Of a stretch of 64,000 bases of DNA, positions 13,609-62,392 are shown piece after piece (position 1 is the first letter of the stretch; each line of letters begins with the position of its first letter). The notes below the pieces were generated by a model. It did no database searches, was not told the DNA's origin, and was given only the letters and a program-made list of their open reading frames with translations. Source of the DNA: Acidobacteriota bacterium (GTDB lineage Bacteria > Acidobacteriota > UBA6911 > RPQK01 > JAJDTT01). The DNA lies in the NCBI GenBank assembly GCA_965219005.1, contig CBDCMS010000003.1:706788-770787 (forward strand), written 5' to 3'. The position numbers and the translations under genes are program-made.

Positions 13609-15207
13609 ATGGGAGGGAGGCTGACAACAATGACCCAACCGAGAGCGGATTGGATCGCGGTAGTCCGAGAGTCGAGCATCCTGGGATTCGTGGCCTGGCT
13701 CCTGGTGGTGATTTGCCAGGCCGCAGAACCGATCCACATCGGTTCTCGGCTGGAGCTGTTCGTCGACGATTACTTGATCGACACGATGGCAGGCGCCAGG
13801 TTGACGTTACATCAGCCGGTGGCGCGGGAGATCGCACTCGATCACAATGCAGTCCCCTGGGAAGGCAACACGTCGCTCTTTCACACGGTTTTCCAGGACG
13901 GGCCACTTTACCGCATGTACTATCGTGGCAAGCAGAATGAACCGACAGAAGATCCCGCGTTGCCTCCCCCCATCGTCTCGAGTTTTTTCTGTTATGCGGA
14001 GAGCGACGACGGTGTCCACTGGAGGCGGCCGGAGCTGGGTCTGGTCGAGTTCCAGGGCTCGAAGAAGAACAACATCGTCTGGTCACACGCCGACTCGGCG
14101 CGACTCTGGGATGTCCCCAATACCGTGCTGATGGGGACGGATGACCCGGATGCCTTTCGGTATTCCAGTCCTATCAACTTCACGGTATTCAAGGACACCA
14201 ATCCCGACTGCCCGCCGGAAGTACGCTACAAGCTGATGGGAGGGTCCTGGTTCGGGGGCACCTGGGTCTTCAAGTCGGCCGACGGGATCCACTTCACTCC
14301 CATGATCCGCGAACCGGTGATCCCGCCGGCGATGGGCAACAAGCTCAACCCGCGGTTTGCTGCCGACACCGCGGCACTCTGGGATCCGGTGGGAAGGCGC
14401 TATCTCAGCTTCCACAGGGCGGGACGGCTCGTGTACACCTGGCGCGAAATAGTGATGTCCAGCTCCACCGATTTTCTGGACTGGAGTGATCCCGTATATC
14501 TGGAGTATCCCGGCGCACCCGTCCAGCAGCTGTACACCAATTCGATCAACGCCTATGCGCGTGCACCCCACATTCTGCTGGGATTCCCCAAGCGGTTCAC
14601 CCAAGGGCGCAAGGCAACGATCGTGCCCGGCACCACCGATGGCCTCAGTGACGGCGTGTTCATGTCCAGCCGTGACGGCCTCCATTTCCGCCGCTGGGCC
14701 GAGGCTTTTGTGCGGCCGGGCCCCCAATCCGACCGCTGGGTCAGCCGCAACAACTCCATCGTCAACGGCGTCGTCGTCACCGGGTCCCATCTGGTGGATG
14801 CCCCCGATGAGCTGTCGATCTACGTCGTCGAGGGCTACTACAGTGTGAGCCGCAACAAGTGCCGGCTGCGCCGGCACACGATCCGCATGGACGGCTTCGT
14901 CTCGGTTCAGGCGCCCTTCAGCGGTGGCGAGCTCGTCACCAAGCCCGTCGTGTTCGAAGGGAAGACGTTGGTGATGAACTACTCGACCTCGGCCGCGGGC
15001 AGTGTCAGCGTGGAACTGCAGACCGAGTTCGGAAAGCCCATCGACGGCTTCACACTGGCGGACTCGGGAGAGATCTACGGCGACGAGATCGAACACGTGG
15101 TTTCCTGGAAGGGCAATTCCGACCTGAGCAAGCTGGCCGGCAAGCCGGTGAGGCTGAGGTTTGTGATCAAGGACGGCGATCTGTACTCCATCCGATTCCG
15201 GCCGTGA
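13609..15207 (+). CDS. Family A secreted Asp-box beta-propeller glycoside-hydrolase-like protein, subfamily A1; tandem paralog of the next gene
   Basis: Hydrophobic N-terminus. Motifs IGSRLELFVDDYLID, YRMYYRG, SDDGVHWRRP, SADGIHF and DGFVSV. C-terminal ending KPVRLRFVIKDGDLYSIRFRP. Confidence 0.8.
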   Translation: MGGRLTTMTQPRADWIAVVRESSILGFVAWLLVVICQAAEPIHIGSRLELFVDDYLIDTMAGARLTLHQPVAREIALDHNAVPWEGNTSLFHTVFQDGPLYRMYYRGKQNEPTEDPALPPPIVSSFFCYAESDDGVHWRRPELGLVEFQGSKKNNIVWSHADSARLWDVPNTVLMGTDDPDAFRYSSPINFTVFKDTNPDCPPEVRYKLMGGSWFGGTWVFKSADGIHFTPMIREPVIPPAMGNKLNPRFAADTAALWDPVGRRYLSFHRAGRLVYTWREIVMSSSTDFLDWSDPVYLEYPGAPVQQLYTNSINAYARAPHILLGFPKRFTQGRKATIVPGTTDGLSDGVFMSSRDGLHFRRWAEAFVRPGPQSDRWVSRNNSIVNGVVVTGSHLVDAPDELSIYVVEGYYSVSRNKCRLRRHTIRMDGFVSVQAPFSGGELVTKPVVFEGKTLVMNYSTSAAGSVSVELQTEFGKPIDGFTLADSGEIYGDEIEHVVSWKGNSDLSKLAGKPVRLRFVIKDGDLYSIRFRP

Positions 15208-15418
15208 GGCTGGAGCTTGGAATGTGTTTTCTCCAATCTCAGCGCAGCCGACTCGACATTTCCGGGAAGATTCTGAATGACCCCTTCTAGTAAGCAGTCA
15301 GTCAGGTCCGGCCTTGTTTGTACGGTCAGATCTGGGCTATTACACTTTCATGGTCCCTGAATACGCTCCCTTCCGAGATAGACTGGCTTTCAGCAAGACC
15401 CCCCGTCAAGGAGGAAGG

Positions 15419-17002
15419 ATGATGAGGACGGCGCTGCTTGTTTTCAGTCTGCTGCTCTCCCTCGCGGCGCTATTGTCGCACCCAGCCGAGACCACAAAGG
15501 CCCTGGACATCGGCTCCCGCTTGGAGCTGTTCGTGGACGACTACCTGATCGACACGATGGCGGGCGCCAGGCTGACGTTGCATCAGCCCGTGGCGAGGGA
15601 GATCGCACTGAATCACAATGCAGTCCCCTGGGAAGGCAACACGTCGCTCTTTCACACGGTTTTCCAGGACGGGCCACTTTACCGCATGTACTATCGTGGC
15701 AAGCAGAATGAGCCGACAGAAGATCCCACGTTGCCTCCCCCCGTCGTCTCGAGTTTCTTCTGTTATGCGGAGAGCGACGACGGTGTCCACTGGAGGCGGC
15801 CGGAGCTCGGCCTGGTCGAGTTCCAGGGCTCGAAGAAGAACAACATCCTCTGGTCACAGGCCGACTCGGCACGACTCTGGGACGTCCCCGATACCGTGCT
15901 GATGGGGACGGATGATCACCTTCAAGCCGAACCCCGAGATCTTCGAAGTTTTCGGTATTCCAGTCCTATCAACTTCACGGTATTCAAGGACACCCATCCC
16001 GACTGCCCGCCGGAAGCACGCTACAAGCTGATGGGAGGGTCCTGGTTCGGGGGCGTCTGGGCCTTCCAGTCGGCCGACGGGATCCACTTCATTCCCATGG
16101 TCCGGGAACCTGTGATTCCCCCGACGATGGGCAACAAGCTCAACTCGCCGTTTGCTGCCGACACCGCGGCACTCTGGGATTCGGTGGGAAGGCGCTATCT
16201 CAGCTACCACAGGGGAGGGCGACCGAAATACGTCTGGCGCGAACACTTCATGTCCAGCTCTGCCGATTTTCTCCACTGGAGCGAGCCCGTGTATCTGGAG
16301 TATCCCGGTGCACCCGTCCAGCAGCTGTATACCAATTCGATCAGCGCGTACGCTCGTGCACCCCACATTCTGCTGGGATTCCCCAAGCGGTTCACGCAAG
16401 GGCGCAAGGCGACGGAAGTGCCCGGCACCACCGATGGCCTCAGTGACGGCGTGTTCATGTCCAGCCGTGACGGGCTGCATTTCCGCCGCTGGGCTGAGGC
16501 TTTTGTGCGGCCGGGTTCCCAATCCGACCGCTGGGTCAGCCGCAACAACGCCATCGCCAACGGCGTCGTCGTCACCGAGTCCCATCTGGTTGATGCGCCC
16601 GATGAGCTGTCGATCTACGTCGTCGAGGGGTACTACAGTGTGATCAGCAACAAGTGCCGGCTGCGCCGGCACACGATACGGATGGACGGCTTCGTCTCGG
16701 CTCGGGCGCCCTTCAGCGGTGGTGAGCTCGTCACCAAGCCCGTCGTGTTCGGAGGGAAGACGTTGGTGATGAACTACTCGACCTCGGCCGCGGGCAGTGT
16801 CAGCGTGGAACTGCAGACCGAGTTCGGAAAGCCCATCGAGGGCTTCACGCTGGCCGACTGTGGAGAGATCTACGGCGACGAGATCGAACGCGTGGTTTCC
16901 TGGAAGGGCAGTTCCGACCTGAGCAAGCTGGCCGGCACGCCGGTGAGGCTGAGGTTCGTGATCAAGGACGGCGATCTGTACTCCATCCGATTCCGGCCGT
17001 GA
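15419..17002 (+). CDS. Family A protein, tandem paralog of 13609..15207 (about 90% aa identical)
   Basis: The ORF track opens at 15314. The likely start is the MMRTALLVFSLLLSLAALLS signal peptide, preceded by a aaggagga SD sequence. Confidence 0.8.
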   Translation: MMRTALLVFSLLLSLAALLSHPAETTKALDIGSRLELFVDDYLIDTMAGARLTLHQPVAREIALNHNAVPWEGNTSLFHTVFQDGPLYRMYYRGKQNEPTEDPTLPPPVVSSFFCYAESDDGVHWRRPELGLVEFQGSKKNNILWSQADSARLWDVPDTVLMGTDDHLQAEPRDLRSFRYSSPINFTVFKDTHPDCPPEARYKLMGGSWFGGVWAFQSADGIHFIPMVREPVIPPTMGNKLNSPFAADTAALWDSVGRRYLSYHRGGRPKYVWREHFMSSSADFLHWSEPVYLEYPGAPVQQLYTNSISAYARAPHILLGFPKRFTQGRKATEVPGTTDGLSDGVFMSSRDGLHFRRWAEAFVRPGSQSDRWVSRNNAIANGVVVTESHLVDAPDELSIYVVEGYYSVISNKCRLRRHTIRMDGFVSARAPFSGGELVTKPVVFGGKTLVMNYSTSAAGSVSVELQTEFGKPIEGFTLADCGEIYGDEIERVVSWKGSSDLSKLAGTPVRLRFVIKDGDLYSIRFRP

Positions 17003-21368: not shown

Positions 21369-21399
21369 GGCCCGATTTCAGTCCCCTCTTCATCGGGGG

Positions 21400-21592: not shown

Positions 21593-23098
21593 CTACTCGA
21601 TCCAAAAGGAGAACAAGCGGGCATTGTAGAGGCGAAACCGGAAGCGAACGCGTTGTCCCTGCAGGGAGCTGAGATCCTTCTGCCCCGTCCACTTGACTTC
21701 TGCTCGCAGATGATCGCCTTGAATGGATCGACACCGATCCCGGCTCCGGCCTTCCAGGATCTGGCGGCCCCGTTCGTTCACCACCTCCACCCGCAGTTCG
21801 CCCTCGCTGGCGTCGGCATTGACGAACAACCGAGCTCCGTCGAAGCTCAGGGCCCGGGTCTCCACGAAACCGCCCTTTTCGTCGGAGGCAAAGTAAGCAA
21901 AGCGGTCCCGCTTGAGCTTGGCCAGATGGACGGCTCCCCGGTAGGGGTCGTCCGTCTGGAAGCGGTGGTTCACACCCGTGTAGTAGAACCAGAGCTCGTC
22001 TCCGCGAACAAGCGGTCGGGACGCCGCCAGCAGCTGGCCGGTGTCGATGGCCCCGCCGCCCACTTCTGAAACCGGAATAAAGGATCCCCGACCGCCGACC
22101 TTGACCCAGTTCCTCAGATCCCGGCTGGTGGAGAGCTTGATCGAGTTGACGCCCTCCTGATTCCGGTTGGGACTGTGCCCGCTGGACTCGAAAAAAGTAG
22201 GCAGGCCGATATAGATGCCCTCATAGGGGAAGACCGGCATGTTGTATATCTCGGCATTGTAGTGTGCGGGCTGGTTGACGGTCATCAACCGGAGCCGGGG
22301 ATTGGAGAGGTGGTCTCGGACTCGCTTCTCGCCCAGCAGCTGGTCGTAGGCGTCGGCGTGGAAGATCAACTCGGGGTCGGTCCAGTTCTCGAAATCCTTG
22401 CTCAGGGACAGGTAGACCGAGCGTCCGAATGGCCCCCGGTGCTTGACGGTGACAATGAAGCGCTTCCTGACCTCGTCGTAAACCAGATGAGACTCATCCT
22501 GGCTGGGTATGATCGGAACCTCCAGCCGGGTGAACACATAGCCATCAGCCGATACCACCGGATGCCGATCCCTGGGGCCGATCAACCCCTTGTATCTCCG
22601 CTCCCCAGAACCGTTCGGATCCAGCAGAACGTGCTGAACGAAGGCCTCGGGATCGTCTCTGACCAGGATGAGGTTGTTGTTCTTGGAACCCTCAAACTCC
22701 CGCTTGCCCAAAGAAGGCTTCTCCCAGGTGATTCCGTCCTTGGACCGGGCAAACGCCGTCCTGTGGTTGGAGTAGTACCACATCTTCCAGACTTGTTCCT
22801 GGGGATCCCAACAGGGAGCGCTGCGAATCTTGGCACCTTTCGTCAATCCGGGATTCCAGTCGGGACCCGGAAACTGCTCCCAGGGCTTGTCGGGGATAAC
22901 TACGGGGTTGCCTTCGTACTTCACGGGCCTGTTGACCCGGCGTTCAACCCGGTAAAGGGATCCCACCAGGTAGTCGTCCAAAAGCAGCTGATGTTGTCCC
23001 GTGGGCAGGTGGACACGTCCCGGTGGCTTCGCCCCTTCGAGACCAACTATCAGCCATGACATCGCGAGAACAAAAGCCAGGTATCTTTGTTGCTTCAT
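21593..23098 (-). CDS. Family A protein, divergent member ending ...RFRFRLYNARLFSFWIE
   Basis: The likely start is the MKQQRYLAFVLAMSWLIVG signal peptide; the ORF track extends upstream to 23371. Motifs SKDGITW and DRFAYF. Confidence 0.75.
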   Translation of the reverse strand: MKQQRYLAFVLAMSWLIVGLEGAKPPGRVHLPTGQHQLLLDDYLVGSLYRVERRVNRPVKYEGNPVVIPDKPWEQFPGPDWNPGLTKGAKIRSAPCWDPQEQVWKMWYYSNHRTAFARSKDGITWEKPSLGKREFEGSKNNNLILVRDDPEAFVQHVLLDPNGSGERRYKGLIGPRDRHPVVSADGYVFTRLEVPIIPSQDESHLVYDEVRKRFIVTVKHRGPFGRSVYLSLSKDFENWTDPELIFHADAYDQLLGEKRVRDHLSNPRLRLMTVNQPAHYNAEIYNMPVFPYEGIYIGLPTFFESSGHSPNRNQEGVNSIKLSTSRDLRNWVKVGGRGSFIPVSEVGGGAIDTGQLLAASRPLVRGDELWFYYTGVNHRFQTDDPYRGAVHLAKLKRDRFAYFASDEKGGFVETRALSFDGARLFVNADASEGELRVEVVNERGRQILEGRSRDRCRSIQGDHLRAEVKWTGQKDLSSLQGQRVRFRFRLYNARLFSFWIE

Positions 23099-23736
23099 AG
23101 CCATCTCCATCAACTCCTGTCGGGCCAGCTTAAGTTGATAGAGGAGGTTTGCCTCAACCTCTCGCCCGAAGGAGCGGTGAGGGAATTTCGGGGGCAGCTT
23201 TTGGGGATGCCAAGAACAAAACGACAGGGATGCCGCATCTTCTAGCTTGAAAACGAGAGACCCTCCTCTAATTAAGAAGCTGCCACTCTGGCGCTTGCGC
23301 CCGCTTGAATCCCGGTTCGGCCAAACCTCTGCCCTCGGCTCGTCGAATGGCTTTTCGGGAAGCCTCTTCATCTGGCTTCAACCCTCCCACGGGGCGCGTT
23401 AGTCTTCGGACTCACCCTGAAACTGAAGGCGACTGGCCTCATGGTCTTTGCCCCGGAAGTCGGTCCATTGTACAGGTGTTTCCTGTCGCGAGAAGAATAG
23501 TTGTTGACAACTTCCGGTTTCAAGGGACAAGGTTGTGGCATTCTGGCTCGAATTGCGAAGCGACGCCAGTTCAACTAGCACCCTGCCACCCAGGATCGTC
23601 TTCGACATCCCATCGGCGTGGCGGAAGAAGGGCAACTCATAGATGGTCGAGTTGTAGAACGTATTGGAACGGTCCGAGCGCATCGGCGACTTCATCGTAG
23701 CCAGAAAGCGGGGGAGCCGACGGGGTTCAGGTCGCA

Positions 23737-24767: not shown

Positions 24768-26309
24768 ATGAATGCACAATCGTTGACTCGGAGCAAATTT
24801 CTAACCTATTCCTGGATAGTCTTAGCTCTTGTCGGCGCGACATTTGGATACCCGCAGGAAAAACTGGAACTCAAACCGGGCGTCAAGCAGCTATTCCTTG
24901 ACGATTATCTGATAAATGAGGTGCACAACCTCAGGCAGGTGTTGCATCAACCGGAGAAGATTTCAGCCGAGCCCGTGATTCGACCGGAGCATTCTTGGGA
25001 GAGTGTAAATGCAAGTACACGAAGCGCCCCGTTTTGGGACCCCGCGGAGCAGGTTTGGAAGCTCTATTACATGTGCAATTCCGAGAACAAGGTTTCTGGG
25101 GAAGCTCGAGGGGGGCAGTGCCTGGCGATTTCCAAGGACGGGCTGCATTGGACGAAGCCTAAACTCGGCCTCGTTGAGCGGGACGGATCGAAGGACAACA
25201 ATATCGTGGCCGAGCAACTCTACCAAGTTATCTTCGATGCGAGCGGTGGGAGCGAGCGTTACAAAGGGTTTTTCGGTTCATCGGGGCGAAAGCCCGCTAT
25301 TTCCGCAGACGGTCTGCACTGGCGGATGCTGGAAGTTCCGCTGATCCCGAGTAGGGATGAATCGCAGCTGATCTACGACGAACTGGCGGGGCAATATCTC
25401 GCCACTGTGAAACATGAGGGACCGTACGGGCGATCCGTTTATCTCACGACGAGCCGGGATTTTCGCGAATGGTCCACGCCGCGCCTAATCTTTCACGCTG
25501 ACGGCGAAGATCAGGATAGGAGTCGCAAACGAATCTCGGGGAGACTAACTGACGCGCGTTTTGCGCCGCTAACCCTCAATCGACCTGGAGATTACAACGT
25601 AGATGTCTACAACATGCCAGTGTTCCCATACGGAGGGATCTACATAGGCACTCCGATGTTTTTTAATCAGAGCGGGCCGACGCCGATCGGAAACTCCGAG
25701 GGGTTTCACCATGTGGAGTTGGTCACGAGCCGCGACCTGATTCGATGGGAGCGCGTGGCGGGTCGAGTGCCGTTCATGGAGACCTCGCATGTTGGTAGCG
25801 GCGCGTATGACACGGTTCAGTTGGTTCCTGCGAATCGCCCCGTGGTCCGGGACGACGAATTGTGGTTCTATCATGCCGGAAACAAGTATCGCTTCAATCC
25901 CGATACGATACGTACGCGACCTGATGGATCGAAAACCTGGGGTTTCCCAGATGACACCGGAGCGATCTATGTTTCCCGACTGCGCTTGGACGGCTTCGTC
26001 TCGCTGGATGCCGGGGAGTTGAACGGCGAATTACTTACCCGCCCTCTTATTCTGCGGGGCCGCCTGCTAATGGTAAACGCACATGTGCGGGACGGCGGGT
26101 TTCTCCGCGCCGAGATTCTGGATGCCACCGGGCGAAGGACGATGGAAGGATTCTCGCTCGTAAATGCGACCGCTCTAGCCGGCGATCAGTTACGCGCGCC
26201 ACTATCGTGGCAGGTCGGCAAAGATCTTGGTGCGCTGGCCGGCCAGGAGGTGCGGCTGCGCTTCGTCTTCCGCGAAGCCAGTCTCTATGCGTTCTGGTTG
26301 GCGGAGTGA
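24768..26309 (+). CDS. Family A protein, subfamily A2 (ends ...VRLRFVFREASLYAFWLAE)
   Basis: Signal-peptide region FLTYSWIVLALVGATFG; the ORF track starts at 24672. Motifs LELKPGVKQLFLDDYLI, SKDGLHW and DGFVSLDAG. Confidence 0.8.
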   Translation: MNAQSLTRSKFLTYSWIVLALVGATFGYPQEKLELKPGVKQLFLDDYLINEVHNLRQVLHQPEKISAEPVIRPEHSWESVNASTRSAPFWDPAEQVWKLYYMCNSENKVSGEARGGQCLAISKDGLHWTKPKLGLVERDGSKDNNIVAEQLYQVIFDASGGSERYKGFFGSSGRKPAISADGLHWRMLEVPLIPSRDESQLIYDELAGQYLATVKHEGPYGRSVYLTTSRDFREWSTPRLIFHADGEDQDRSRKRISGRLTDARFAPLTLNRPGDYNVDVYNMPVFPYGGIYIGTPMFFNQSGPTPIGNSEGFHHVELVTSRDLIRWERVAGRVPFMETSHVGSGAYDTVQLVPANRPVVRDDELWFYHAGNKYRFNPDTIRTRPDGSKTWGFPDDTGAIYVSRLRLDGFVSLDAGELNGELLTRPLILRGRLLMVNAHVRDGGFLRAEILDATGRRTMEGFSLVNATALAGDQLRAPLSWQVGKDLGALAGQEVRLRFVFREASLYAFWLAE

Positions 26310-26393: not shown

Positions 26394-27989
26394 ATGAACA
26401 CTTGGGTGTATCAGTCATCAGCTCTGTTTGTGTTGGCAGTCTTATTTACGGCACCACACGTCAAGGCTAGTGAGGATTCGGTCCGCAACATTGGTTCACG
26501 GTTGGAGCTTTTCGTAGATCATTATCTGATTGAACGAATGGAAGGCGCTCGACTCAAGCTCCACGAGCCGCGACGGGAAGAAGTAGTCTTCAATACGGAC
26601 GGTTATGTGGGATATACGACAGTTATCAAGGATCGCGAATCCTATCGGCTGTACTACAGTTGGAGGGATCCACGGCGCACGGATGATGATGAAAGGCCAA
26701 GCTTCCCCGAAGGGAAAGAAGATGTTGTCACTCGTTATGCCGAGAGCTCTGATGGTATCCATTGGACAAAACCCAAGCTGAGCCTCTTCGTGGTGCAAGG
26801 CTCGCTCGATAATAATGTGGTCCTGGGGGGCCAGTCGTGGATTTCTAAAACCTTCAGCCCCTTCCGCGACACTCGCGTTGGTGTGCCTGTTTCGGAGCGG
26901 TTCAAGGCGTTGGGGGGGGCGTTCCATTCACCGAATGAGCCCCGCCTGGGCGGTTTGATGGCCTTGGTCTCCGCCGATGGAATTCATTGGAAGCAGCTCC
27001 GCGCAAGGCCGGTCATTAACGAATGGCATTATCCGCATCCGACAGATACCGATCAGCCCGCTGTCTTTTGGTCAGAGAGTGAAGAGCGCTACGTCTGTTA
27101 TCCCCGAGTTCGGATGAAGAATTCCAAGGAATTTGCTCACGAAGACGTATATAAGATTGGCTACCGTTGGATTGGGCGAAGCACGTCGAAGGACTTTATC
27201 AATTGGACAAAGGTGGAGCCGATGGATGTGGGGGACGCACCTGTAGAAGAGTTCTACCACAACCAGACGCATCCTTACTTTCGCGCCCCCCACATCTACA
27301 TTGCCTTGCCCGTACGATTCATGGGAGCACCCCTAAACCCCGGACGACGAGCCTTGACGGTGTCACAACTCAACGAGGTGCTGGCTGATCCCGTAGCACC
27401 GGGGAAGGCCTATAAATCCACTATGGCACTGGAGTTCACAGACATCGTGTTGCTGACTTCTCGAGGTGGTAACCGATATGATCGTACTTTTGCAGAAGCC
27501 CTTATCCGCCCTGGGCTTGATTTACGCAACTGGACCAACCGGGCCAACTATTCAACCTTGGGGGTTGTGCCGACGGGTCCCAGCGAGATGTCAATTTACA
27601 TGAAGCAGTATGGTCATTATTCATGGAGAGGGCGTATTCCGTCTGGCCATATTCGACGCTTTGCATTGCGCACTGATGGCTTTGTCTCTGTGAATGCTCC
27701 CTTCGGCGGTGGCGAGATTGTAACCAAGCCTTTGACCTTTTCTGGCAAGGAATTGGCAATTAACTATTCGACCTCTGCTCCTGGTAGCGTTCGAGTAGAA
27801 ATACAGGACAAGTTCGGCCAACCACTGGCCGGTTATTCGTTGGCAGAAGCTAGTGAGATTATTGGCGACCAGATTGAGCGAGTAGTTTCATGGAAGGAGG
27901 GTTCGGACGTAAGCAAACTAGCTGGGAAATCGATTCGGCTGCGTTTTGTAATGAAGGACGCTGACTTGTATTCCATCCGATTCAAGTGA
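26394..27989 (+). CDS. Family A protein, subfamily A1-like (ends IRLRFVMKDADLYSIRFK)
   Basis: Signal peptide MNTWVYQSSALFVLAVLFTAPHVKA. Motifs IGSRLELFVDHYLIE, SSDGIHW and DGFVSVNAPFGGGE. Lower GC than its neighbours. Confidence 0.8.
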   Translation: MNTWVYQSSALFVLAVLFTAPHVKASEDSVRNIGSRLELFVDHYLIERMEGARLKLHEPRREEVVFNTDGYVGYTTVIKDRESYRLYYSWRDPRRTDDDERPSFPEGKEDVVTRYAESSDGIHWTKPKLSLFVVQGSLDNNVVLGGQSWISKTFSPFRDTRVGVPVSERFKALGGAFHSPNEPRLGGLMALVSADGIHWKQLRARPVINEWHYPHPTDTDQPAVFWSESEERYVCYPRVRMKNSKEFAHEDVYKIGYRWIGRSTSKDFINWTKVEPMDVGDAPVEEFYHNQTHPYFRAPHIYIALPVRFMGAPLNPGRRALTVSQLNEVLADPVAPGKAYKSTMALEFTDIVLLTSRGGNRYDRTFAEALIRPGLDLRNWTNRANYSTLGVVPTGPSEMSIYMKQYGHYSWRGRIPSGHIRRFALRTDGFVSVNAPFGGGEIVTKPLTFSGKELAINYSTSAPGSVRVEIQDKFGQPLAGYSLAEASEIIGDQIERVVSWKEGSDVSKLAGKSIRLRFVMKDADLYSIRFK

Positions 27990-29447: not shown

Positions 29448-30344
29448 ATGAATGCAAGCCTAGTACTTTGGTCCAGGTTTTTACTTCGATGTTCGCTCAC
29501 CATTCTTGTTGCTGCGACTTACGGACACGCTCAGGAACAATTGGAGCTTAAGCCAACCGCCAAGCAGCTTTTCCTCGATGACTACGTTATCAAGAGAGTG
29601 CATAACCTCCGGCGCGTACTGCATCAGCCGGCGAAAATTGTACCCGAGCCAGTGATTAGTCCTGAGCATTCCTGGGAAAATGTGACCGTAGGGACACGCA
29701 ATACGCCTTATTGGGACTCCGGTGAAAAGGTTTGGAAACTCTATTACCATGGAACGGCTATGGAAAGCGACGACGTCGGTCAAAGTCGACTTACTTATAG
29801 ACAGTGCCTCGCAATTTCCAAGGATGGGCTGTACTGGACGAAGCCCAATCTCGGCTTGATCGAGTGGAACGAATCAAAAGAAAACAATATCGTGGCGTCG
29901 AGCGGCAACTTTCTGTATCACGTAATCCATGATGTGAATGGTGGAAACGAACGCTACAAAGGACTCTTTGGAATGTCGGGCCGGAAGTCGGCTGTCTCTC
30001 CCGACGGGCTGAATTGGCGCTTCCTCGATGCACCAGTAATTCCGAGTCAGGATCAATCGAAGTTGAACTATGACGAACTGGCTGGGGAATATCTGCTTAC
30101 GGTAAAGCATGAGGGGCCGTACGGACGCTCCGTTTATCTCACGACGAGCAAGGATTTTCGAGAATGGTCCAAGCCGTGGCTGATCTTTCACGCTGACGGC
30201 GAGGATCAAGAGGCGAGCCGCAGGCGGATCGCTGCCAGATTGACGGACGCGCGGTACGCACCGCTTACCGTCAACCGGCCCCTGGCAGCTCCAAGAAGCC
30301 TACCGGATGTCGATGGAGACCGGCTTTCCGGGGAAGGAGGATGA
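29448..30344 (+). pseudogene. Truncated family A (subfamily A2) gene covering only the N-terminal ~280 residues
   Basis: Colinear with 33401..34957 up to ...LTVNRP, then about 20 unrelated residues and a stop. The IS4 element sits 10 bp upstream of its ATG. Confidence 0.6.
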
Positions 30345-43888: not shown

Positions 43889-44467
43889 GTGAGGACCTAC
43901 TACGCTTCCATCGACCACCAGTGCTTGATCGAGCGTCTGGCACGGGTCATCCAGGACCGTCGCGTGCTGAACCTGGTGGAGCAGTATCTGCAGCGGACAG
44001 CCGAGCAGGGTGGACTATTCTGGGAGTCGGAGCGGGGAATTCCACTAGGCTCTTCCCTGAGCCCGATCCTTGGGGCCTTCTTTCTGGCAGAGTTGGACCA
44101 GCGGCTGGAGAGGACGGGGCTGTTCTACGTCCGCTCCATGGATGACATCCTGGTGCTGGCCCCCTCGCGCTGGAAACTGCGTCGGGCGGTGCGAGTCCTG
44201 AACCAGATCCTGTCCTCTCTGAAACTTGAGAAACACCCGGAGAAGACCTTCATCGGTCCGATCGAAAGGGGCTTTGATTTCCTTGGCTGGTTTGCGCTGG
44301 AGGAATCACCCCTGATCTGGGGAGACGAGATCGAGCACACAGTACGCTGGGCACCGAGTCATGCCAAGGCGACTTCAGATAAGCCCCTGGCAAGGATTGA
44401 AGGCAAGCCGGTCCGGCTGCGCTTCGTGATGAAGGGTGCGGATCTGTACTCCCTGAGGTTCAGATAA
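43889..44467 (+). pseudogene. Chimeric ORF: a reverse-transcriptase fragment (group-II-intron-like) fused in frame to the last ~55 residues of a family A protein
   Basis: RT motifs YYASIDH, GIPLGSSLSPILGAFFL, YVRSMDDILV and GFDFLGWF, followed by GDEIEHTVRW...GKPVRLRFVMKGADLYSLRFR. Confidence 0.55.
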
Positions 44468-44481: not shown

Positions 44482-46260
44482 CTACCAACCGATTGCGTAC
44501 GATGTAGAGCGCGGGTCGGCGCCGCCTACGCGGACGCCGCTCTCGCGATCGACGGTGATTGCGCACACCCGGCTGACCTCAGAGCTCCAATCTTCGTGAT
44601 CGTCGACAATATGCCCTCGATTTCTCAAAGCCTCGCGTGTCCGCGGGCCAATCCGGGCTTCAACCGTCACCTGGCCGGGCAACGATCCGTGGGGCCAGAA
44701 GGAGTTGGGAAAGCTGTGACTGATGACGCGGGGTGCTTCGATGGCTTCTTGTGGCTCCATCCCGAACTCGATGATGTTGAGGAACACTTGCAGCATTCCT
44801 TGGACCTGTGCATCACCGCCGGGGCAGCCAAAGGGCATGAACGGCTTTCCAGCCTTGAGAACCACCGCCGGGTTCGGCGTGAGGCGCGGACGCTTCCAAG
44901 GACGAAGACAGGAAGGGTGTGCCGGATCAAGCCAAGACTGCGTCCCACGTCCTGAAACGGGAAAGCCCAAGCCGGGGACGACGGGGGACCATCCCACCAC
45001 ATCCGAAGGCGTCGCTGAAAAAGCATTGCCTTCTTCGTCAACTACACACAGATAGCAGGTATCGCTTTCCCAGAGCGATGTGCGTTCCGGCTGCGGACCA
45101 CAGGGATCCACGGTTGGCAGGGCACCCTTTTTGCCACGCGGCTGTGGATGGAATGGCCACGGATTTCCGGGCGGCGGCATGTCGGGGGCGGCGTGCTCCA
45201 GGTCGATTTCGGCACGTCTTTCGGCAGCATATCCTTCCCGAAGCAAGCCCGCCATCGGTACTTGCACAAATTCGGGGTCGCCGAAGTAGGCCTCCCGATC
45301 CGCAAACACCAGCTTGAGTCCCTCGATGATCGTATGCAGATAGTCTGCGGAATGATGGCCCATCTGCTTCAGCTCAACCCCTTCGAGAATCTTCAGCGCC
45401 ATGTTCAAGGTTGGACCCTGACACCAGGGCCCGCAGGTATAAACGTCGTAGCCTTTATAGGTGGCGTGCTCCGGCGCCTCGATCTGCACTGAAAACGTCA
45501 CCAGATCTTCATAGGTCAGCAGCCCACCTTCCCGCCGTTGAAAACCGGCGATTTCGTGGGCAATTTCACCCTTGTAAACCAGGTCTCGCGCCGCCCTGAT
45601 GCCTGCCTTCCGATCGCCGCCTGCCTTGCGCTCGGCCTCGATCATCCTTTTGAAAGTGTTCGCCAGATCTTTCTGGAAAAAGATTTCCCCGATCTGTGGA
45701 ATTTGCCCACCGGGATTGAAGGTTGCGGCGGTTGAAGGCGCAGTTCCGATCCCCCCGCTGACAAACGAATGAAACTGTGCGTCAACGGGGTGACCCTGCT
45801 CGGCCAGATCCAGAGCGGGCTGGATAACCTCCCCAAAGGTCATCGTGCCGAACCGCGCCAACGCGGTCAGCCACGCATCGGGTGATGCCGGGGTGACTGT
45901 CCGCAGAATTCCGGGGGGTAGATCGCCGCCGTGGTGTTGGTGAAAGTAGTCCATGGTGGCGGCTCTGGGCCAACGTCCTACGCCGCTGATCGTTTCGACG
46001 GGGCTGCCCGATGCCGGACAGTAGATAATCGGCGCAACCCCTCCGAAATGGGTGTACCCGGGTTGAAGCACGTTGATGCAGATGCCAGTAGCGACACCAG
46101 CGTCGGCGGCATTGCCACCACTTTCGAGAATGCGAACCCCGCCCATCGTTGCCAGATAATGAAGCGACGAGACAACATAACGCTTCCCTCGTACCGAGGG
46201 GCGATGGCTTCTTGGCATTAGAGTTTCTCTCCTGCGCCTCAAGCGGGTGTAGTGTCCCAC
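44482..46260 (-). CDS. Gamma-glutamyltranspeptidase (GGT) family protein
   Basis: GGNAADAGVATG motif and a nucleophile-Thr region DTCYLCVVDEEGNAFSATPSD. About 590 aa. The likely true start is Met15 (MPRSHRP). Confidence 0.75.
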   Translation of the reverse strand: MGHYTRLRRRRETLMPRSHRPSVRGKRYVVSSLHYLATMGGVRILESGGNAADAGVATGICINVLQPGYTHFGGVAPIIYCPASGSPVETISGVGRWPRAATMDYFHQHHGGDLPPGILRTVTPASPDAWLTALARFGTMTFGEVIQPALDLAEQGHPVDAQFHSFVSGGIGTAPSTAATFNPGGQIPQIGEIFFQKDLANTFKRMIEAERKAGGDRKAGIRAARDLVYKGEIAHEIAGFQRREGGLLTYEDLVTFSVQIEAPEHATYKGYDVYTCGPWCQGPTLNMALKILEGVELKQMGHHSADYLHTIIEGLKLVFADREAYFGDPEFVQVPMAGLLREGYAAERRAEIDLEHAAPDMPPPGNPWPFHPQPRGKKGALPTVDPCGPQPERTSLWESDTCYLCVVDEEGNAFSATPSDVVGWSPVVPGLGFPVSGRGTQSWLDPAHPSCLRPWKRPRLTPNPAVVLKAGKPFMPFGCPGGDAQVQGMLQVFLNIIEFGMEPQEAIEAPRVISHSFPNSFWPHGSLPGQVTVEARIGPRTREALRNRGHIVDDHEDWSSEVSRVCAITVDRESGVRVGGADPRSTSYAIGW

Positions 46261-47708: not shown

Positions 47709-49292
47709 TTGGATATGAGGAATGTTGGCTTGAACCGGCGCCGCTTCCTGACCGGGAGCTTGAGCACAGGGGGCTTCGTCTACTGGTCCTGGGCCTGTGT
47801 TTTTCTTTGCTGGTGCTCGACAATGGGTCTCTCGGCCCCCCTCGAGGTGCGCCAGCTGGGAAGCCAGCTTCAACCGCTCTGGGACGATTGGCTGGTCGAA
47901 AGCCTGGACAACGTCCGCCATATCCTCCACAGCCCGAAGCCGGGGGAGATCGTCCTCCGGCGGGATCGTCCCTGGGAGGATCAGGCCATCTACAACCCGG
48001 TGGTCATCAGGGATGGGTATCGCTACCGTATGTGGTACCGCGCCCGGGCGGTGGAGAAACCTATCTACACTGCATACGCCGAGAGTCTGGACGGGATCCA
48101 CTGGGTGAAACCCAATCTGGGCTTCATAGAGCATGACGGATCGAAGGAAAACAACCTTGTGTGGCCGGTGCCGGGAGGCAAGGGCAGGTCCGTTTCCGTC
48201 ATCAAGGACGAGAACCCCCAGGCGGATCCCCAGGAGCGCTACAAGGCCATCACCAACCAGGGGACGACCTTGCCTTCGGGCCGGGACATCGCCCTGCTGT
48301 ACGGGCTGGTTTCCCCGGACGGTCTGCGCTGGCGCATGGTGCAGGAGAAGCCCATCGTCGTTCCTCCTCTGGGGGACGGGGCCTTTGACTCGCACAACAT
48401 CATCTTGTGGGATGGAGCGCGGGGGCACTATTCCATCTATGCCCGGGGCTGGTACCGCAGGGGAAGCCTTCCCCTGGAGGGAAAGCGGGTAGCCAAGGAA
48501 GCGGACCATGTCCTGATGAAGCTACCCTCGGGAAAGATCGAGAAGATCAGCCGGATCCGGGACATTCGGCGCTTCACCTCGAAGGATTTCCGGACCTGGT
48601 CCGAGCCGGAGTACATTGGTCTTGGCGACACGCCACTGGAGCACCTGTACAAGAACTCGGCGGTTCCCTACTATCGACGTCCCGACATTCTCCTTATGTT
48701 TCCCAAACGCTTCCTGCCCACCCGGAAGTTTCATGCCGACTGGCTCCAACCTGGTCTCTCGGACGTGGTCTTCATGTTCAGCCGAGATGGGCTGAACTTC
48801 GACCGGCGCTTCATGGAGGCTTTCCTGCGCCCTGGACCCAATCCCTTGAACTGGCATGAGCGGGCGATCCAGGTAGGCCCCACACTGGTACCCACCGCTC
48901 CAGGAGAGATGTCCCTCTACTATGCCGAGCAGGCCAAGACGACCCAGGTTCGGATCCGCCGGGCCCTGCTGCGTGAAGATGGCTTTGTGTCCCTTCATGC
49001 ACCTTACCAGGGAGGCACACTCCGGACGCGGCCCCTGCAGTTCTCGGGCTCACGTCTGGTTCTCAACTACTCCACCTCGGCGGCCGGGAGTATCCGGGTG
49101 GAGATCCAGGACGCCGACGGAACACCGCTGGAAGGGCATCGCCTGGAAGATTCCCCGGACACCTTCGGGGACGAACTAGAGAGGGAGCTCAGATGGAAGG
49201 GTGGCCCCGATGTGGGCAGACTGGCAGGGAAGCCGGTTCGGCTGCGCTTCGTGATGAAGGATGCGGATCTCTACTCGCTGAGGTTCAGGTAG
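47709..49292 (+). CDS. Family A protein with a twin-arginine (Tat) signal
   Basis: N-terminus MRNVGLNRRRFLTGSLSTGG is Tat-like. Ends KPVRLRFVMKDADLYSLRFR. Confidence 0.8.
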   Translation: MDMRNVGLNRRRFLTGSLSTGGFVYWSWACVFLCWCSTMGLSAPLEVRQLGSQLQPLWDDWLVESLDNVRHILHSPKPGEIVLRRDRPWEDQAIYNPVVIRDGYRYRMWYRARAVEKPIYTAYAESLDGIHWVKPNLGFIEHDGSKENNLVWPVPGGKGRSVSVIKDENPQADPQERYKAITNQGTTLPSGRDIALLYGLVSPDGLRWRMVQEKPIVVPPLGDGAFDSHNIILWDGARGHYSIYARGWYRRGSLPLEGKRVAKEADHVLMKLPSGKIEKISRIRDIRRFTSKDFRTWSEPEYIGLGDTPLEHLYKNSAVPYYRRPDILLMFPKRFLPTRKFHADWLQPGLSDVVFMFSRDGLNFDRRFMEAFLRPGPNPLNWHERAIQVGPTLVPTAPGEMSLYYAEQAKTTQVRIRRALLREDGFVSLHAPYQGGTLRTRPLQFSGSRLVLNYSTSAAGSIRVEIQDADGTPLEGHRLEDSPDTFGDELERELRWKGGPDVGRLAGKPVRLRFVMKDADLYSLRFR

Positions 49293-50168: not shown

Positions 50169-51173
50169 GTGCGCTACGACAACAAGTGGGCCGTCTCCCG
50201 GAACCTGGGACGCCTGACCACCCGTGATGGGGTGAACTGGAAACGAAGCTACATCTGGGCACCCCCACGGAAACACCCCAGACACCAGAGCTACGGCATG
50301 CAGCGGGTGGAGCGGATCGGGGATCTCTACGTCGCCTTCTTCCCTCTCTACGACTGTGCCACCCAACGGATGAACATTCATCTCTGGGTCAGTCGTAACG
50401 GCATCCACTGGGAGGACGTGGGAGGCGACCAAGCCTGGATCCCAAATGGACCTGACAGCAGCTACGATCACGGGATCGTCTACAGCTTTGCAGGCTGGAG
50501 GAGTGACGGAGACCGGTCCATCGGTTTCTATCACGGCACCAACACGCTGCACTTCAACGCCTGGGTCCGGGTGAAGATGGCGGGGACCAGCGAAAGACCC
50601 GGAATTCCCGCCTCCCAGATCTTCGACGATGAGCAGTACAATGGCCGGGCCTACCTCTCGCCTCCAGCGCCCACCCGACCGGGCTGGGCCCTCTACGACT
50701 GCATCTGGAGCTGGCGCCGGCGCACCTGCAGCCAGAGCCTGGAGGAGGCCCGGGAGGCCTTCTGGGCCGAGGTGGAGGCCAACACGGGACAGAATCGATC
50801 CAACCACATCCAGAAGAGCCGGGAGCTCAAGATCGTGCCGGCCCAGGTGGAGTTCCGCACTCTGGGTTTTGCGTCCCGCCGGGCTGGAGAGCGGGAGGGA
50901 GTCCTCACGACCCATCTCCTCCTTTTCCAGGGCAGTAGGTTGACTCTCAATGCGGCCGCCGCCCAGGGTCACCTGAAGGTGGAGGTGCTGGATGCAGGCG
51001 GGCATCCCGTGCCCGGCTACTCCCGGGCGGAGTGCAGCCTTCAGGGATTCGACAGCACCCGACAGGAGGTCAGCTGGCAAGGTCGTTCGGACCTGAAACC
51101 CCTGAGTGGGAAGCCGGTCCGGCTTCGCTTCTATCTTCAGAAGGCCGATCTCTATGGCTTCCAGATCCGATAG
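50169..51173 (+). pseudogene. N-terminally truncated family A gene (334 aa); the first ~200 residues are missing
   Basis: It starts inside the propeller (TRDGVNW) and ends VRLRFYLQKADLYGFQIR. It is preceded by an 870-bp ORF-poor gap. Confidence 0.55.
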
Positions 51174-59281: not shown

Positions 59282-60394
59282 CAGAATGCCTTCGCTGCTC
59301 CCATAGTAAGAGAGGTCCATCTTGCGTTCGACGGCACCAGAATCGCCTGTTCTAAAAGAGCCGCACCCTTTCCCGAACGCCAATACGTCCCGCTCTCGGA
59401 GGTGCTGGCGACCGTGAATCGCTATGCCGGGTTTCTCGACGAGTTTCAGCACTGGCAGCAACGCTATAACCGGCGCCAACCGCCATCGAGGACCTTCTAC
59501 GCCGGGGTCATTGGACTCGGATGCGGGATTGGCACCCGCAAGATTGCCCAGATCTCGCGGCAGATCGAAGAATCGGAGCTCGAGCACACCGTGAACTGGT
59601 ACTTCTCACCGGAGAATGCGGCCGCGGCGAACGACAAAGTGATCCGTCTCATGGACCGCTTGGATTTGCCGAACGTCTACCGCCACACACCGGGTAAACT
59701 CCATACTTCGAGCGACGGCCAGAAATTCACCGTGCGAGGCGATTCTCTCAATGCCAATTTCTCGTTCAAATACTTCGGCAAAGAGCAGGGAGTCACGCTT
59801 CATAGCTTCATCGACGAACGCCACCTGCTGTTCCACTCCACGGTCTTCAGTGCCGCAGAGCGCGAGAGCGCCTATGTCATCGATGGCTTAATGCACAACG
59901 ATGTGGTCAAAAGCGACATCCACTCGACCGACACCCACGGCTACAGCGAGGCCATATTCGGCACGACCCACTTGCTCGGTTTCTCCTACGCACCACGCAT
60001 CAGGAATCTGAAGAAACAGCTCCTATACATCTTCAAGAACCGCAGTGGTGTCGATCGCTCTGAATGGCGAATCAAACCTTCCGGTTACGTGAATCGGCAA
60101 CATATTGCTGACAACTGGGACGACATTCTGCGACTCATTGCAACTATCAAGCTCAAGGAAGTGACCGCATCAGAGCTCTTCCGGCGGCTCAACTCGTACT
60201 CCAAACAACACGCCCTCTATCGGGCCCTCAAGTCCTTCGGGCAGATCATCAAGTCGATTTCCATCCTTCGCTACCTGGATGATGTCCCGCTGCGCCACGC
60301 GATCGAGCACCAGCTCAGCAAGATTGAGCAGTCCCATCGTTTCACGAGGGCGTCCAAAGGGATGATGGCAAAGGCGAAGTTGGAGCGCAGCTGA
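59282..60394 (+). pseudogene. Tn3-family transposase C-terminal DDE region; the 3' part of the gene split by the ISKra4 insertion
   Basis: HSTDTHGYSEAIFGTTHLLGFSYAPRIRNLKKQ is the Tn3 DDE-domain signature. The ORF track starts at a GTG at 59402 and homology extends upstream in frame. Confidence 0.65.
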
Positions 60395-60631
60395 TTGACC
60401 CTGCCGATCGCCGGCCAGAGATTATGAAGATCGGCTTCCATGAAGTTGAATCGCCGGCTTTCTCTTCGGCACTGCTTTCTGGTGCGGCCAGGGCAGCCGG
60501 CACGCCTTTTTCATCCAACTTGCCGGCGGCACACGTTGTTGCATAAATCGATTCGGCGTTTCGGCTTGTCTCTGATCGGTCAGGGTGCCCGCATGAGGAA
60601 TGACGCCGAATGAATACTGCTTTTCGACCGG

Positions 60632-62392
60632 TTAGCGGCCCTTCTTCCGAGCAGCTTCCTTCACCTGCTCCGCAAAACGACCCTGTCGTGTGGCAGGGTT
60701 GGCCTGGCTTCGAGGATGTGGAGACACGCCCGGGGCGGGTTCAGTCGATCGAACACCCCACTGATCGGACCGATGCCGGATGAGTTCGAGCCAGCGGGCA
60801 TTGGCCTTGTTACGACTCAGACTTCCGTCCGGATCGGGCAGCGTGAAAGTATAGGAGTAGAGTTTGGCTTGCTTGAGATACAGCTTCAGGCAAATCCCAC
60901 CGAAGTGCTCGACGCTCAGCTCGTAGGGGGACCTGCCGCTTTTCCACCTGAGCTGCTGGCGGGTTTCGTCGTCCCGAAGGGGAATCGACTCCTGGCGCGT
61001 GAAACCCGCAATCGGATCGCCGTAGGGCGTGATCAGCTCGGCTTCGATCGAGCCTCCCTCGGCGTCGGCATTAACGAAGATCTGGTAGGGTGGGCCCCAC
61101 GGTTTGGTCATCAGCCAACCTTCTTCGGTTCCTGCGTCCAGCGACACCCAGTGATCCTCAGGCATACGCGCCAGCATCAGAACAGCCACGTTTCTCATGC
61201 CTTGGGACCGATCGTAGCTCAGCCAGTCCCACCAGGTGTGGTTCAAGCGGCTGGCGGAGTAGTAGATCCAGGTTTCACCGTCCCTAACCACGGGATTCTC
61301 AGCGGGGAAAACCATGCCGCCATCCTGCGCTCCTACCTTGCCGATAGGGACAACCGGAGAGCGATCGTCAGGCCGGTGCCAGGTCTGGCCATCCCGGCTG
61401 TAGGCCAGCGAGATCTCCAGCTGCCCCACCTTGCCCTTGGGATAATCTTTGGGCTTGTGATAGGCCGCGTAGGTGGGAGCGAAAGGGTGGACGTAGTAGG
61501 GGGTGATCATGCCCAGGAAGAAGCCCTCGTAGCGGAACACCGGCATGTCGTAGAGGTTGTACAGTTCGGGAGGATCCAGCTCGTCCCCGGCCACCAGGAC
61601 GCGCCCCTTGTCTTCCCAATTCACCAGGTCGTAGCTCTCGTATTGGGAGATGTCTCGGGGCACGTTGGGTACGCGGCGGGTCACCAGCACATACTTACGC
61701 CGGTCCTCATCGTAGAACAGGGTGTGGTTGTCGTCACTGATGCCTCTCAGCACCGGATTCACGTGACGGGGCCGCTCCCAGCGCAGCCCATCGTGGGAGT
61801 AGGCAAGGTTCAGACTCGAGTAGTGTTTAGCCCACAGGCCCTCCTCGCCAAACGTGCTGAACGTCATCTTGTAGCGCCGGGCGGGGATATCGCTGCGATC
61901 CTTGATGATGCTGTAGACGAAGTTGCGCTTGAAGGAGATAACCATGTTGTTCTCAGTGGAGCCGTTGGCTTCGACCAGTCCCAGAATCGGCTTCTCCCAC
62001 GTCAGCCCATCCTTGCTGGTTGCGTAGGCCACCCCTCGGGGACCGTCTGTCGTCTCCCCCTGCCAGCGCCCGAGGGTGTACCACATCTTGAAGATCTGTT
62101 CCTCCTCGTCGTATATGACGCTCACGTAATTGAGCTTGTCACCATCGGTTTCCCAGGGAGCGTCCAGACGCAGCACCGGTTCCGCCCGCTTGACTGCCTG
62201 GTTGACCTTGCGACGCAGATTCTGGCTCTCAAGTAGAGGCTCATCGTCTAGAAGCAAGAACTTGTAGCGGCAGAATCTCCGCTCCTCTGCCGCACCTTCC
62301 GGAGAGTTTGTCCAAGCTGGCTGAGCAAGGACCAGAAGCAACATGAGCTTGGACTGGACCCGGAATCGACCTCTGCTGAGTGATTTGTGCAT
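60632..62392 (-). CDS. Family A protein, divergent, with a ~70-residue C-terminal extension past the usual ...KLYSYTF ending
   Basis: Signal peptide MHKSLSRGRFRVQSKLMLLLVLAQPAWT; the ORF track starts at 62476. Motifs SKDGLTW and SRDGQTW. Confidence 0.7.
   Translation of the reverse strand: MHKSLSRGRFRVQSKLMLLLVLAQPAWTNSPEGAAEERRFCRYKFLLLDDEPLLESQNLRRKVNQAVKRAEPVLRLDAPWETDGDKLNYVSVIYDEEEQIFKMWYTLGRWQGETTDGPRGVAYATSKDGLTWEKPILGLVEANGSTENNMVISFKRNFVYSIIKDRSDIPARRYKMTFSTFGEEGLWAKHYSSLNLAYSHDGLRWERPRHVNPVLRGISDDNHTLFYDEDRRKYVLVTRRVPNVPRDISQYESYDLVNWEDKGRVLVAGDELDPPELYNLYDMPVFRYEGFFLGMITPYYVHPFAPTYAAYHKPKDYPKGKVGQLEISLAYSRDGQTWHRPDDRSPVVPIGKVGAQDGGMVFPAENPVVRDGETWIYYSASRLNHTWWDWLSYDRSQGMRNVAVLMLARMPEDHWVSLDAGTEEGWLMTKPWGPPYQIFVNADAEGGSIEAELITPYGDPIAGFTRQESIPLRDDETRQQLRWKSGRSPYELSVEHFGGICLKLYLKQAKLYSYTFTLPDPDGSLSRNKANARWLELIRHRSDQWGVRSTEPAPGVSPHPRSQANPATRQGRFAEQVKEAARKKGR

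Follow-up and report, generated by a model that had tools for sequence, protein, structure and literature searches.

The enzymes of glycoside hydrolase (GH) family GH130 are built on a five-bladed beta-propeller and are, by sequence, the closest described relatives of the proteins presented here. Mutating D142 of BT3780, the candidate proton donor of GH130, abolishes activity (PMC4599007). In GH130 hydrolases, Glu replaces the basic phosphate-binding residues of phosphorylases, and the presence of a signal peptide is read as indicating a hydrolase, the phosphorylases being cytoplasmic (PMC4599007). Two-domain enzymes of GH32 and GH43 (3c7g, 1uyp) belong to the same superfamily, and a five-bladed propeller followed by a further domain is found in the Flavonifractor plautii N-acetylgalactosamine (GalNAc) deacetylase (6n1a/6n1b), whose metal-dependent deacetylation is not known to be shared by the proteins presented here. 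Sialidases of GH33 and GH181 carry Asp-box motifs on six-bladed propellers. In GH181, the propeller is combined with a beta-sandwich that resembles a carbohydrate-binding module (CBM), as in Amuc_1547 (PMC12018670).

Here, we describe an array of 12 intact genes and three fragments belonging to a single family of two-domain proteins, located between 13.6 and 62.4 kb of a 64-kb stretch of DNA from a marine or symbiotic Acidobacteriota bacterium (assembly GCA_965219005.1, contig CBDCMS010000003.1, positions 706,788 to 770,787), hereafter designated as the window. The products are probably secreted carbohydrate-active enzymes, most likely inverting glycosidases that are sister to GH130, and their diverged copies would have different specificities. 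We infer this activity from sequence comparison and place the probability of this reading at about 0.6.

A large family outside Pfam and NCBIfam

The copies of the window were scanned with Pfam and NCBIfam (the latter for ten copies, at E ≤ 1), and Pfam was also applied to 42 diverse members of the family. No copy reached any Pfam or NCBIfam cut-off. Below threshold, the copies of the window gave only weak matches, to GH43, to a propeller of the BT_1020 type and to a model of GH130 phosphorylases, and the NCBIfam scan returned weak GH130 and beta-fructosidase matches only, the best GH130 match scoring 26 bits against a cut-off of 450. None of the 42 members matched PF04041 (GH130) at E ≤ 0.01. 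Weak matches were obtained with PF00251 (GH32N) in three of them, with the BT_1020 propeller in two and with PF04616 (GH43) in one, the latter at 20.9 bits against a cut-off of 32.2. A first-pass annotation, made from the letters of the window and its open reading frames (ORFs), had counted the assignment of all copies to one well-characterised family with its standard C-terminal domain as evidence against its reading. No Pfam or NCBIfam family claims them, and a new glycoside hydrolase family is therefore a possible interpretation.

An exhaustive profile search gathered 5,273 clusters, formed at 50% identity, when E-values were limited to 1e-30, and 15,078 when the limit was 1e-10, the matches at weaker E-values probably including neighbouring families. 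Every homolog bearing a name is a 'hypothetical protein'. The family is broadly distributed among Planctomycetota, Acidobacteriota, Poribacteria, Armatimonadota, Latescibacterota, Spirochaetia, Chloroflexota and other phyla, and it also occurs in one metagenome-assembled genome (MAG) of Bathyarchaeia. Taken together, these searches point to a large family that is absent from Pfam and NCBIfam and new within a known superfamily, not to a new kind of system.

Twelve intact genes and three fragments

After ORF listing and translation, the 12 full-length copies were used as tblastn queries against the window. The 12 genes and three fragments reported by the first-pass annotation were all recovered at their places, and the rest of the window contained no further family copy. 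Genes are designated below by their first coordinate. The array opens with two tandem genes located in a single tblastn stretch (13552-16999): 13609..15207 (+), an ORF of 532 aa with a hydrophobic N-terminal signal and the ending IRFRP, and its recent duplicate 15419..17002 (+). Gene 26394..27989 (+; tblastn 26352-27986), of 531 aa and ending IRFK, shares 48% aa identity with 13609 and 70% with a representative from elsewhere (P0127); an exact-match look-up of it found no record. An AFWLAE-ending subfamily is represented by 24768..26309 (+; tblastn 24672-26312) and 31841..33355 (-; tblastn 31844-33364), to which 33401..34957 (+; tblastn 33371-34954), ending AFWVAE, displays 71-74% aa identity. 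The ending FWIE is found in 21593..23107 (-; tblastn 21584-23371), which shares 46% aa identity with the AFWLAE group; its ORF reaches 23371, and the start is probably located just before the signal peptide. Gene 30341..31948 (+) extends about 45 aa beyond the C-terminal motif, overlaps the 3' end of the convergent gene 31841 and is 52% identical at the aa level to 47709..49292 (+; tblastn 47679-49289).

Three further genes are more divergent. The first, 36949..38568 (+; tblastn 36880-38565), ends in AFQFI and shares 30-38% aa identity with the other copies, and 41966..43546 (+; tblastn 41858-43543), ending SFRLTKSIR, is one residue off the representative P0122. The most divergent copy, 60632..62392 (-; tblastn 60635-62476), carries a tail of about 70 aa beyond the C-terminal motif and forms a subfamily of its own, with relatives elsewhere that are 50-78% identical; it also gives the strongest single-sequence GH130 and GH43 matches among the copies. 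As for the fragments, 29448..30344 (+) comprises the signal peptide and the first 280 aa or so of a 33401-like copy, followed past 278 aa by unrelated sequence and a stop, and it shares the tblastn stretch 29439-31945 with gene 30341. Fragment 44282..44467 (+; tblastn 44282-44464) represents the last 55 aa or so of a copy and aligns at 65-67% aa identity with the C-terminal ends of the 13609 and 47709 proteins. Fragment 50169..51173 (+; tblastn 50199-51424) retains blades 3-5 together with the C-terminal domain, carries a large insertion, and is devoid of signal peptide and of blades 1-2.

Multiple alignments, including one of 358 family sequences from which all conservation levels below are taken unless otherwise stated, confirmed the shared motifs that had been noticed in the window. 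These are the N-terminal LFxDDYLI...LHxP motif (D53, 98% conserved), four Asp-boxes (S132-D134-G135-W138, S223-D225-G226, S286-D288-W292 and S354-R355-D356-G357), the DGFVS motif (D428, 99%) and an ending of the type G.PVRLRF...DLYSxxF. Hydropathy likewise agreed with the signal peptide proposed for each copy: a hydrophobic N-terminal stretch (12-residue Kyte-Doolittle mean 1.7-3.0) was found in 12 of the 12 intact copies and in fragment 29448, and in every intact copy it is located 15-25 residues upstream of LFxDD. The twin-arginine (Tat) signal described for one copy was also recognised in 47709, where NRRRFLTGS precedes the hydrophobic segment and fits the Tat pattern (S/T-R-R-x-F-L-K) by sequence motif only. 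The intact copies are thus predicted to be secreted.

Predicted fold of the propeller

The AlphaFold2 model of the 13609 protein (predicted local distance difference test score, pLDDT, 86.9; predicted TM-score, pTM, 0.86) consists of a propeller followed by a beta-sandwich. As modelled, the fold is the five-bladed propeller of the GH32/43/130 superfamily, shared with GH130, plus a C-terminal beta-sandwich, and the clan suggested by the first-pass annotation is borne out by structure prediction and by Foldseek. Foldseek searches of the PDB returned GH43, GH32 and GH130 enzymes at E-values of 1e-9 to 1e-11 with low TM-scores, and no solved structure in the PDB fitted both domains well. The best full-length E-values (1e-10 to 1e-11) were those of the two-domain GH32 and GH43 enzymes, which share the superfamily and the layout. 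Structure-comparison values were 24.8 for the F. plautii GalNAc deacetylase (6n1b), 22-24 for GH130, 23.0 for GH137 (BT_0996), about 21 for GH43, about 20 for GH159 and GH117, 17-19 for GH32 and at most 16.8 for six-bladed sialidases. In HMMER alignments, the N-terminal LFxDD motif aligns to the GH130 link between blades 4 and 5 (...LLDLEDP...EPILEPE..WE), and the conserved LFxDDYLI stretch would accordingly supply the strand or strands closing the propeller ring.

The canonical catalytic signatures of the better-known propeller enzymes are missing, as had been observed on the window (WMNDP, RIP). The WMNDPNG, RDP and EC motifs of GH32 are absent from the family alignments, and apart from the weak PF00251 matches no other GH32 model appeared in the scans; the single PF04616 match is too low for an assignment to GH43. 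Asp-box motifs are shared with the GH33/GH181 sialidases and with BNR_2 proteins, whose genes neighbour the family and are fused to it elsewhere. In contrast to the six-bladed GH33/BNR sialidases, however, the family has no RIP/FRIP motif, and no BNR_2 Pfam match was obtained on the window copies. GH181 was considered as a candidate and rejected: it is six-bladed, and Amuc_1547 is absent among the PDB sequence and fold matches listed.

Relationship to GH130 and candidate active site

Compared with PDB sequences, the family profile matched GH130 enzymes 7fip (4e-14) and 9fj8 (4e-11). A reference set of true GH130 proteins was assembled, in which, among the matches listed, 120 of 120 carry PF04041, and 20 of these were aligned for profile comparison. 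Against these 20 sequences, hhalign gave a probability of 97.1% and an E-value of 6e-11 over 161 columns, restricted to blades 1-3. Part of this sequence signal stems from common Asp-box-like motifs (SxDGxxW/F), and a WE motif is also shared; the alignment is considered real because the spacing between the Asp and the next strand matches.

The first-pass annotation had proposed to map conserved acidic residues by aligning the paralogs, and one of them stands out. In both hhalign and HMMER, D196 (98% conserved) pairs with the invariant Asp of the GH130 EDPR motif, D142 of BT3780, a correspondence based on alignment only. With hhalign, the H269-R270 pair also corresponds to H165-R166 of GH130 and the consensus Asp at 251/253 to D149. 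D196, K208 and R279 are 98-99% conserved, R362 96% and the Asp at position 251 95%; R270 is found in 92% of sequences, with Lys in a further 5%. Of the GH130 phosphate ligands and the Glu pair that replaces them, one His-Arg pair is thus aligned, the other ligands falling outside the aligned blades. Copy 36949 differs from most copies in carrying Glu (HFEN) in place of the basic residue that pairs with the His-Arg of GH130.

These comparisons show homology to GH130 over blades 1-3. The family would be a sister group of GH130 and not a member of it, because the mannose-binding Asn is not conserved, blades 4-5 remain unaligned and the proteins are about 200 residues longer. With 470-560 aa, they possess an N-terminal motif and a C-terminal jelly roll, both absent from the roughly 300-390 aa of GH130 proteins. 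Export of all window copies and the complete lack of PF04041 matches among the 42 members are further differences.

The C-terminal domain

The C-terminus had been described as near-invariant, which overstates its conservation. The last 115 residues or so are the best conserved region: column identity among the paralogs averages 51% there and 30% over the entire protein, and across the 358 aligned sequences the commonest residue accounts on average for 0.54-0.58 of a column in the C-terminal domain against 0.37-0.47 in the blades. Only six columns of the domain are invariant in the paralog alignment, however, and 30341 and 60632 run past the motif. Modelled alone, the domain (about 105 residues) yields a small jelly roll (pLDDT 86.6), confident in all but the first ten residues or so. 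Foldseek returned weak matches (E ≥ 2e-3, TM about 0.5), including CBM6, PirA, GOLD and furin P-domains, with the CBM6 domain of 3c7g among the best (TM about 0.5), and sequence searches against the PDB found nothing below E 0.45. With no significant sequence or fold match in the PDB, the domain is not recognised as a GH32C domain, as a member of a CBM family or as a sorting domain.

Most copies end with this best conserved region. The first-pass annotation had raised the possibility that these 110 aa or so act in secretion or sorting, being recognised and then cleaved. The evidence argues strongly against this role. The region folds independently; the NCBIfam scan of ten copies identified no sorting model; and tails of 45-70 aa extend beyond it in 30341 and 60632. 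The domain is internal in P0132, P0157, P0169 and P0191, with Laminin_G_3, CBM9, dockerin or BNR_2 on its C-terminal side, and Laminin_G_3 follows the propeller in P0172, P0183 and P0211. Neither the strict C-terminal position nor the taxon limits of sorting domains (the C-terminal domain of the type IX secretion system, PEP-CTERM and similar) were found, and the family extends to phyla with very different envelopes, including Chloroflexota, Spirochaetia and the Bathyarchaeia MAG. A sorting function is thus highly improbable, and the region is a conserved domain, a weakly CBM6-like jelly roll.

Proposed function and alternatives

What the copies may catalyse, by which mechanism, on which class of substrates and with what sharing of tasks can be inferred as follows. 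Acting as inverting exo-glycosidases, the proteins would use D196, the equivalent of the GH130 proton donor, as proton donor, possibly through a relay by substrate or solvent of the kind suggested for GH130. H269/R270, R279, R362 and K208, all of them conserved and basic, would position the nucleophile (water) or an anionic group of the substrate. The array would attack complex glycans with a range of linkage or substrate specificities, each subfamily having its own, and would act alongside the neighbouring BNR_2 sialidase-like proteins, sodium:solute symporters and sugar-acid catabolic genes.

Several observations weigh against glycosidases of this kind. The position equivalent to BT3780 N74, which binds mannose O3/O4 in GH130, is occupied by His in 13609 and varies among paralogs. 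The unaligned blades 4-5 include the sugar-binding D363 of BT3780 (blade 5), and the clustering of the conserved residues in one pocket is deduced from alignment and strand position only. R270, aligned to the HRR motif of phosphorylases, is kept, and by GH130 logic basic residues are a phosphorylase sign (PMC4599007). Gene context varies by lineage with no fixed operon partner, and some loci contain nothing relevant. In the literature on GH130-like and new five-bladed GH families, no paper on this family was found; its uncatalogued status was judged by Pfam, NCBIfam and the PDB, and a recent CAZy family with no solved structure might possibly cover it.

The proteins might instead modify carbohydrates without cleaving glycosidic bonds, for example as metal-dependent deacetylases like that of F. 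plautii, or as esterases or lyases. The family profile does match the F. plautii deacetylase weakly (E 1e-6, blades 3-5), and homologs are fused to an SGNH/GDSL-type domain (P0063) or to an M14 metallopeptidase domain (locus L040). This sequence relationship, with only 12% identity, is nevertheless weaker than that with GH130 (4e-14; hhalign 97%), whose catalytic Asp is conserved, and we regard such activities as unlikely. Extracytoplasmic glycoside phosphorylases or transglycosylases keeping a GH130/GT108-type phosphate site would account for the alignment of H269-R270 with the invariant H165-R166 of beta-1,2-mannoside phosphorylases and for the basic residue kept at position 270, since hydrolases carry Glu there (PMC4599007) and only 36949 does so in the window. 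Yet all 12 intact copies bear export signals, which in GH130 mark hydrolases, the phosphorylases being cytoplasmic (PMC4599007), homologs bear dockerin and CBM9 domains typical of extracellular enzymes, and the other phosphate ligands are unmapped in the unaligned blades 4-5; taken as a whole, this makes phosphorolysis rather improbable. Slightly less doubtful, albeit still quite unlikely, is a wider proposal in which the family would form a new CAZy family of exported proteins with a GH130-type anion site, either the first extracytoplasmic phosphorylases or transglycosylases or glycosidases reading sulfated or carboxylated marine or host sugars, each copy addressing a different linkage.

Finally, the propellers could be non-catalytic, lectin-like glycan-binding proteins capturing substrates for other enzymes or transporters. 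The lack of any canonical GH32, GH43 or GH33 catalytic motif and the large share of sequence signal due to structural Asp-boxes are compatible with this role, and fusions to enzyme-like domains (BNR_2, M14) would also fit an accessory function. However, D53, D196, K208 and R279, which lie outside the Asp-boxes, and to a lesser extent R270, are conserved across many phyla in a manner more reminiscent of an active site; D196 matches the catalytic Asp of GH130; and the proteins already possess a CBM-like domain of their own, to which homologs add CBM9 or Laminin_G_3. Purely lectin-like propellers are accordingly very unlikely, and secreted inverting glycosidases are the reading that we retain.

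Age, selection and density of the copies

Most paralog pairs share 28-52% aa identity and have almost no alignable DNA. Three recent pairs were identified: 13609 and 15419 (88% aa and 93% DNA identity, dN/dS 0.34), 24768 and 31841 (86% and 88%, dN/dS 0.17), and 33401 and fragment 29448 (86% and 91% over 278 aa, dN/dS 0.36). Older pairs have dN/dS values of 0.12-0.22 with dS above 1.4, including 0.12-0.13 between 33401 and the two AFWLAE-ending genes. Between subfamilies, synonymous sites are saturated (dS 1.4 to more than 2) and DNA identity is limited to short stretches, so that the similarity is one of proteins and not of DNA, as the first-pass annotation had stated. The dN/dS range of 0.12-0.36 implies that the intact copies are under purifying selection.

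Relatives of several copies were found in other organisms. Proteins 64-69% identical to 13609 occur elsewhere, as do loci of Pirellulaceae/Planctomycetaceae (64%), 26394 has a relative at 70% identity, and 60632 shares 50-59% identity with proteins of Armatimonadota, Phycisphaerae and Acidobacteria. For each of the paralogs tested, proteins of other phyla are closer than most of its neighbours in the window, for which reason the array does not represent a single recent burst. It is mainly an assemblage of old subfamilies, to which three recent duplications were added. The hyper-expansion first described thus stands as a recent local event for the three duplicate pairs only, most copies being old subfamilies.

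The extreme copy density was confirmed by comparison with 92 collected loci, 80 of which were from other genomes. The window has the highest density of all; about 15 of the 80 loci hold two to five copies or fragments, and none comes near 12 plus three in 49 kb. Several related Acidobacteriota loci are also clustered, with five matches in 21 kb (L007), three genes and a fragment in 5.4 kb (L078), and three genes (L081). The nearest loci, at 85-90% protein identity, belong to MAGs of Acidobacteriota, among them 'Acidobacteria bacterium UBA6911', which comes from a marine metagenome. An assembly artefact as the origin of the expansion was considered and ruled out, given the low identity of most copies and the recurrence of the arrangement in an independent contig (L092).

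Genomic context and domain fusions

A second expansion adjoins the array. It comprises two sodium:solute symporter genes forming a paired inverted repeat with 84% DNA identity (3-1604, +; 7424-9070, -) and two genes for BNR_2 sialidase-like proteins, one with a six-bladed propeller (6025..7191, -; Pfam BNR_2, 9e-20) and the other at 9269..10396 (-; 9e-13). Just upstream of the window (locus L090, 1-9300) are at least three more BNR_2 genes and another symporter. A gamma-glutamyltranspeptidase (GGT) gene is located at 44482..46260 (-; Pfam, 4e-107), and other neighbours encode an enolase-superfamily enzyme, a 2-hydroxyacid dehydrogenase, a GHL10-like protein and a major facilitator superfamily transporter. 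Inside the array, a secreted protein of 568 aa (35139-36845) gave weak GIFT and DUF4350 matches, the latter in common with a duplicated 729-aa protein described below. An ORF of 246 aa (51988-52728) consists of two halves that resemble each other and weakly matches DUF1330 and YCII-like (dimeric alpha/beta barrel) models, and the neighbouring ORF at 51201-51941 had no Pfam match.

Neighbours in other genomes include BNR_2 proteins, sulfatases, GH2, GH123, GH109-like oxidoreductases, GntR and periplasmic-binding regulators, and sugar transporters. In a crude survey of the 80 loci, BNR_2 was found in 13, sulfatases in 17, GFO/IDH/MocA proteins in 13 and GGT in seven. Enrichment of neighbours is not claimed because there is no background rate; for the sulfatases, many of the taxa are sulfatase-rich and six loci are syntenic Spirochaetia. 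The seven GGT loci are all from Acidobacteriota (L048, L053, L056, L058, L060, L075 and L077), and in five of them the gene is located between two family copies.

Domain fusions provide firmer evidence than neighbours. Among 20 multidomain relatives scanned, fusions involved Laminin_G_3 in five, BNR_2 in three (P0188, P0191 and P0263), CBM9 in two, and a dockerin and an M14 peptidase in one each. These architectures point to extracellular carbohydrate work, presumably in cooperation with BNR_2 proteins. In the M14 fusion, from the Planctomycetota MAG NIOZ-UU7 (L040, 1217-3937, -), a complete family member is linked to an M14 zinc-carboxypeptidase-like domain and the N-terminal domain that belongs to it, and M14-like genes lie within 3-4 kb of a family gene in two other loci (L082, 3649-5172; L087, 5048-6178). 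The fusion and these neighbours may hint at glycopeptide substrates. An M14 peptidase signal in 79 of the 80 loci was attributed to hidden Markov model drift caused by one M14-family fusion protein, and was discarded except for the fusion itself.

Mobile DNA and local rearrangement

Several genes in the array exhibit features of mobile genetic elements. An IS4-like transposase gene (28255-29424; DUF4372 and DDE_Tnp_1) is located directly upstream of fragment 29448, and an IS5/IS1182-like transposase gene (DUF772 and DDE_Tnp_1) occupies 40277-41662. A reverse-transcriptase fragment (43889-44290) forms one ORF (43889-44467) with fragment 44282, the RVT_1 match covering ORF residues 4-133. The two parts of a Tn3-family transposase gene, one N-terminal (54926-56221, DUF4158) and one with the DDE region (59402-60394), are separated by an insertion. 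It holds a DruA-like (PF14236) gene and a gene of 355 aa that matches nothing in Pfam (56749-57651 and 58145-59212). In the related locus L081, IS66 transposase genes are likewise flanked by DruA-like genes. Insertion sequence (IS) elements would have shaped the island and left the three dead copies.

A direct duplication of 3,755 bp (2269-6023 and 17617-21371; 99.9% identity) is separated by 15.3 kb. The duplicated segment encodes a GHL10-like protein of 413 aa and a 729-aa protein that weakly matches DUF4350. The arrangement of the window, including both 3,755-bp copies, is also found on a 1.86-Mb ENA contig, and its right-hand part on an independent contig, so that it is not an artefact of the window.

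Implications

If the members of this family are glycosidases, a sizeable share of the glycan-degrading capacity of marine and symbiont bacteria would be absent from current surveys of carbohydrate-active enzymes. With 12 diverged copies that appear functional and come from a single genome, the island can serve as a ready test panel, and the conserved Asp and His-Arg residues are direct targets for mutagenesis.

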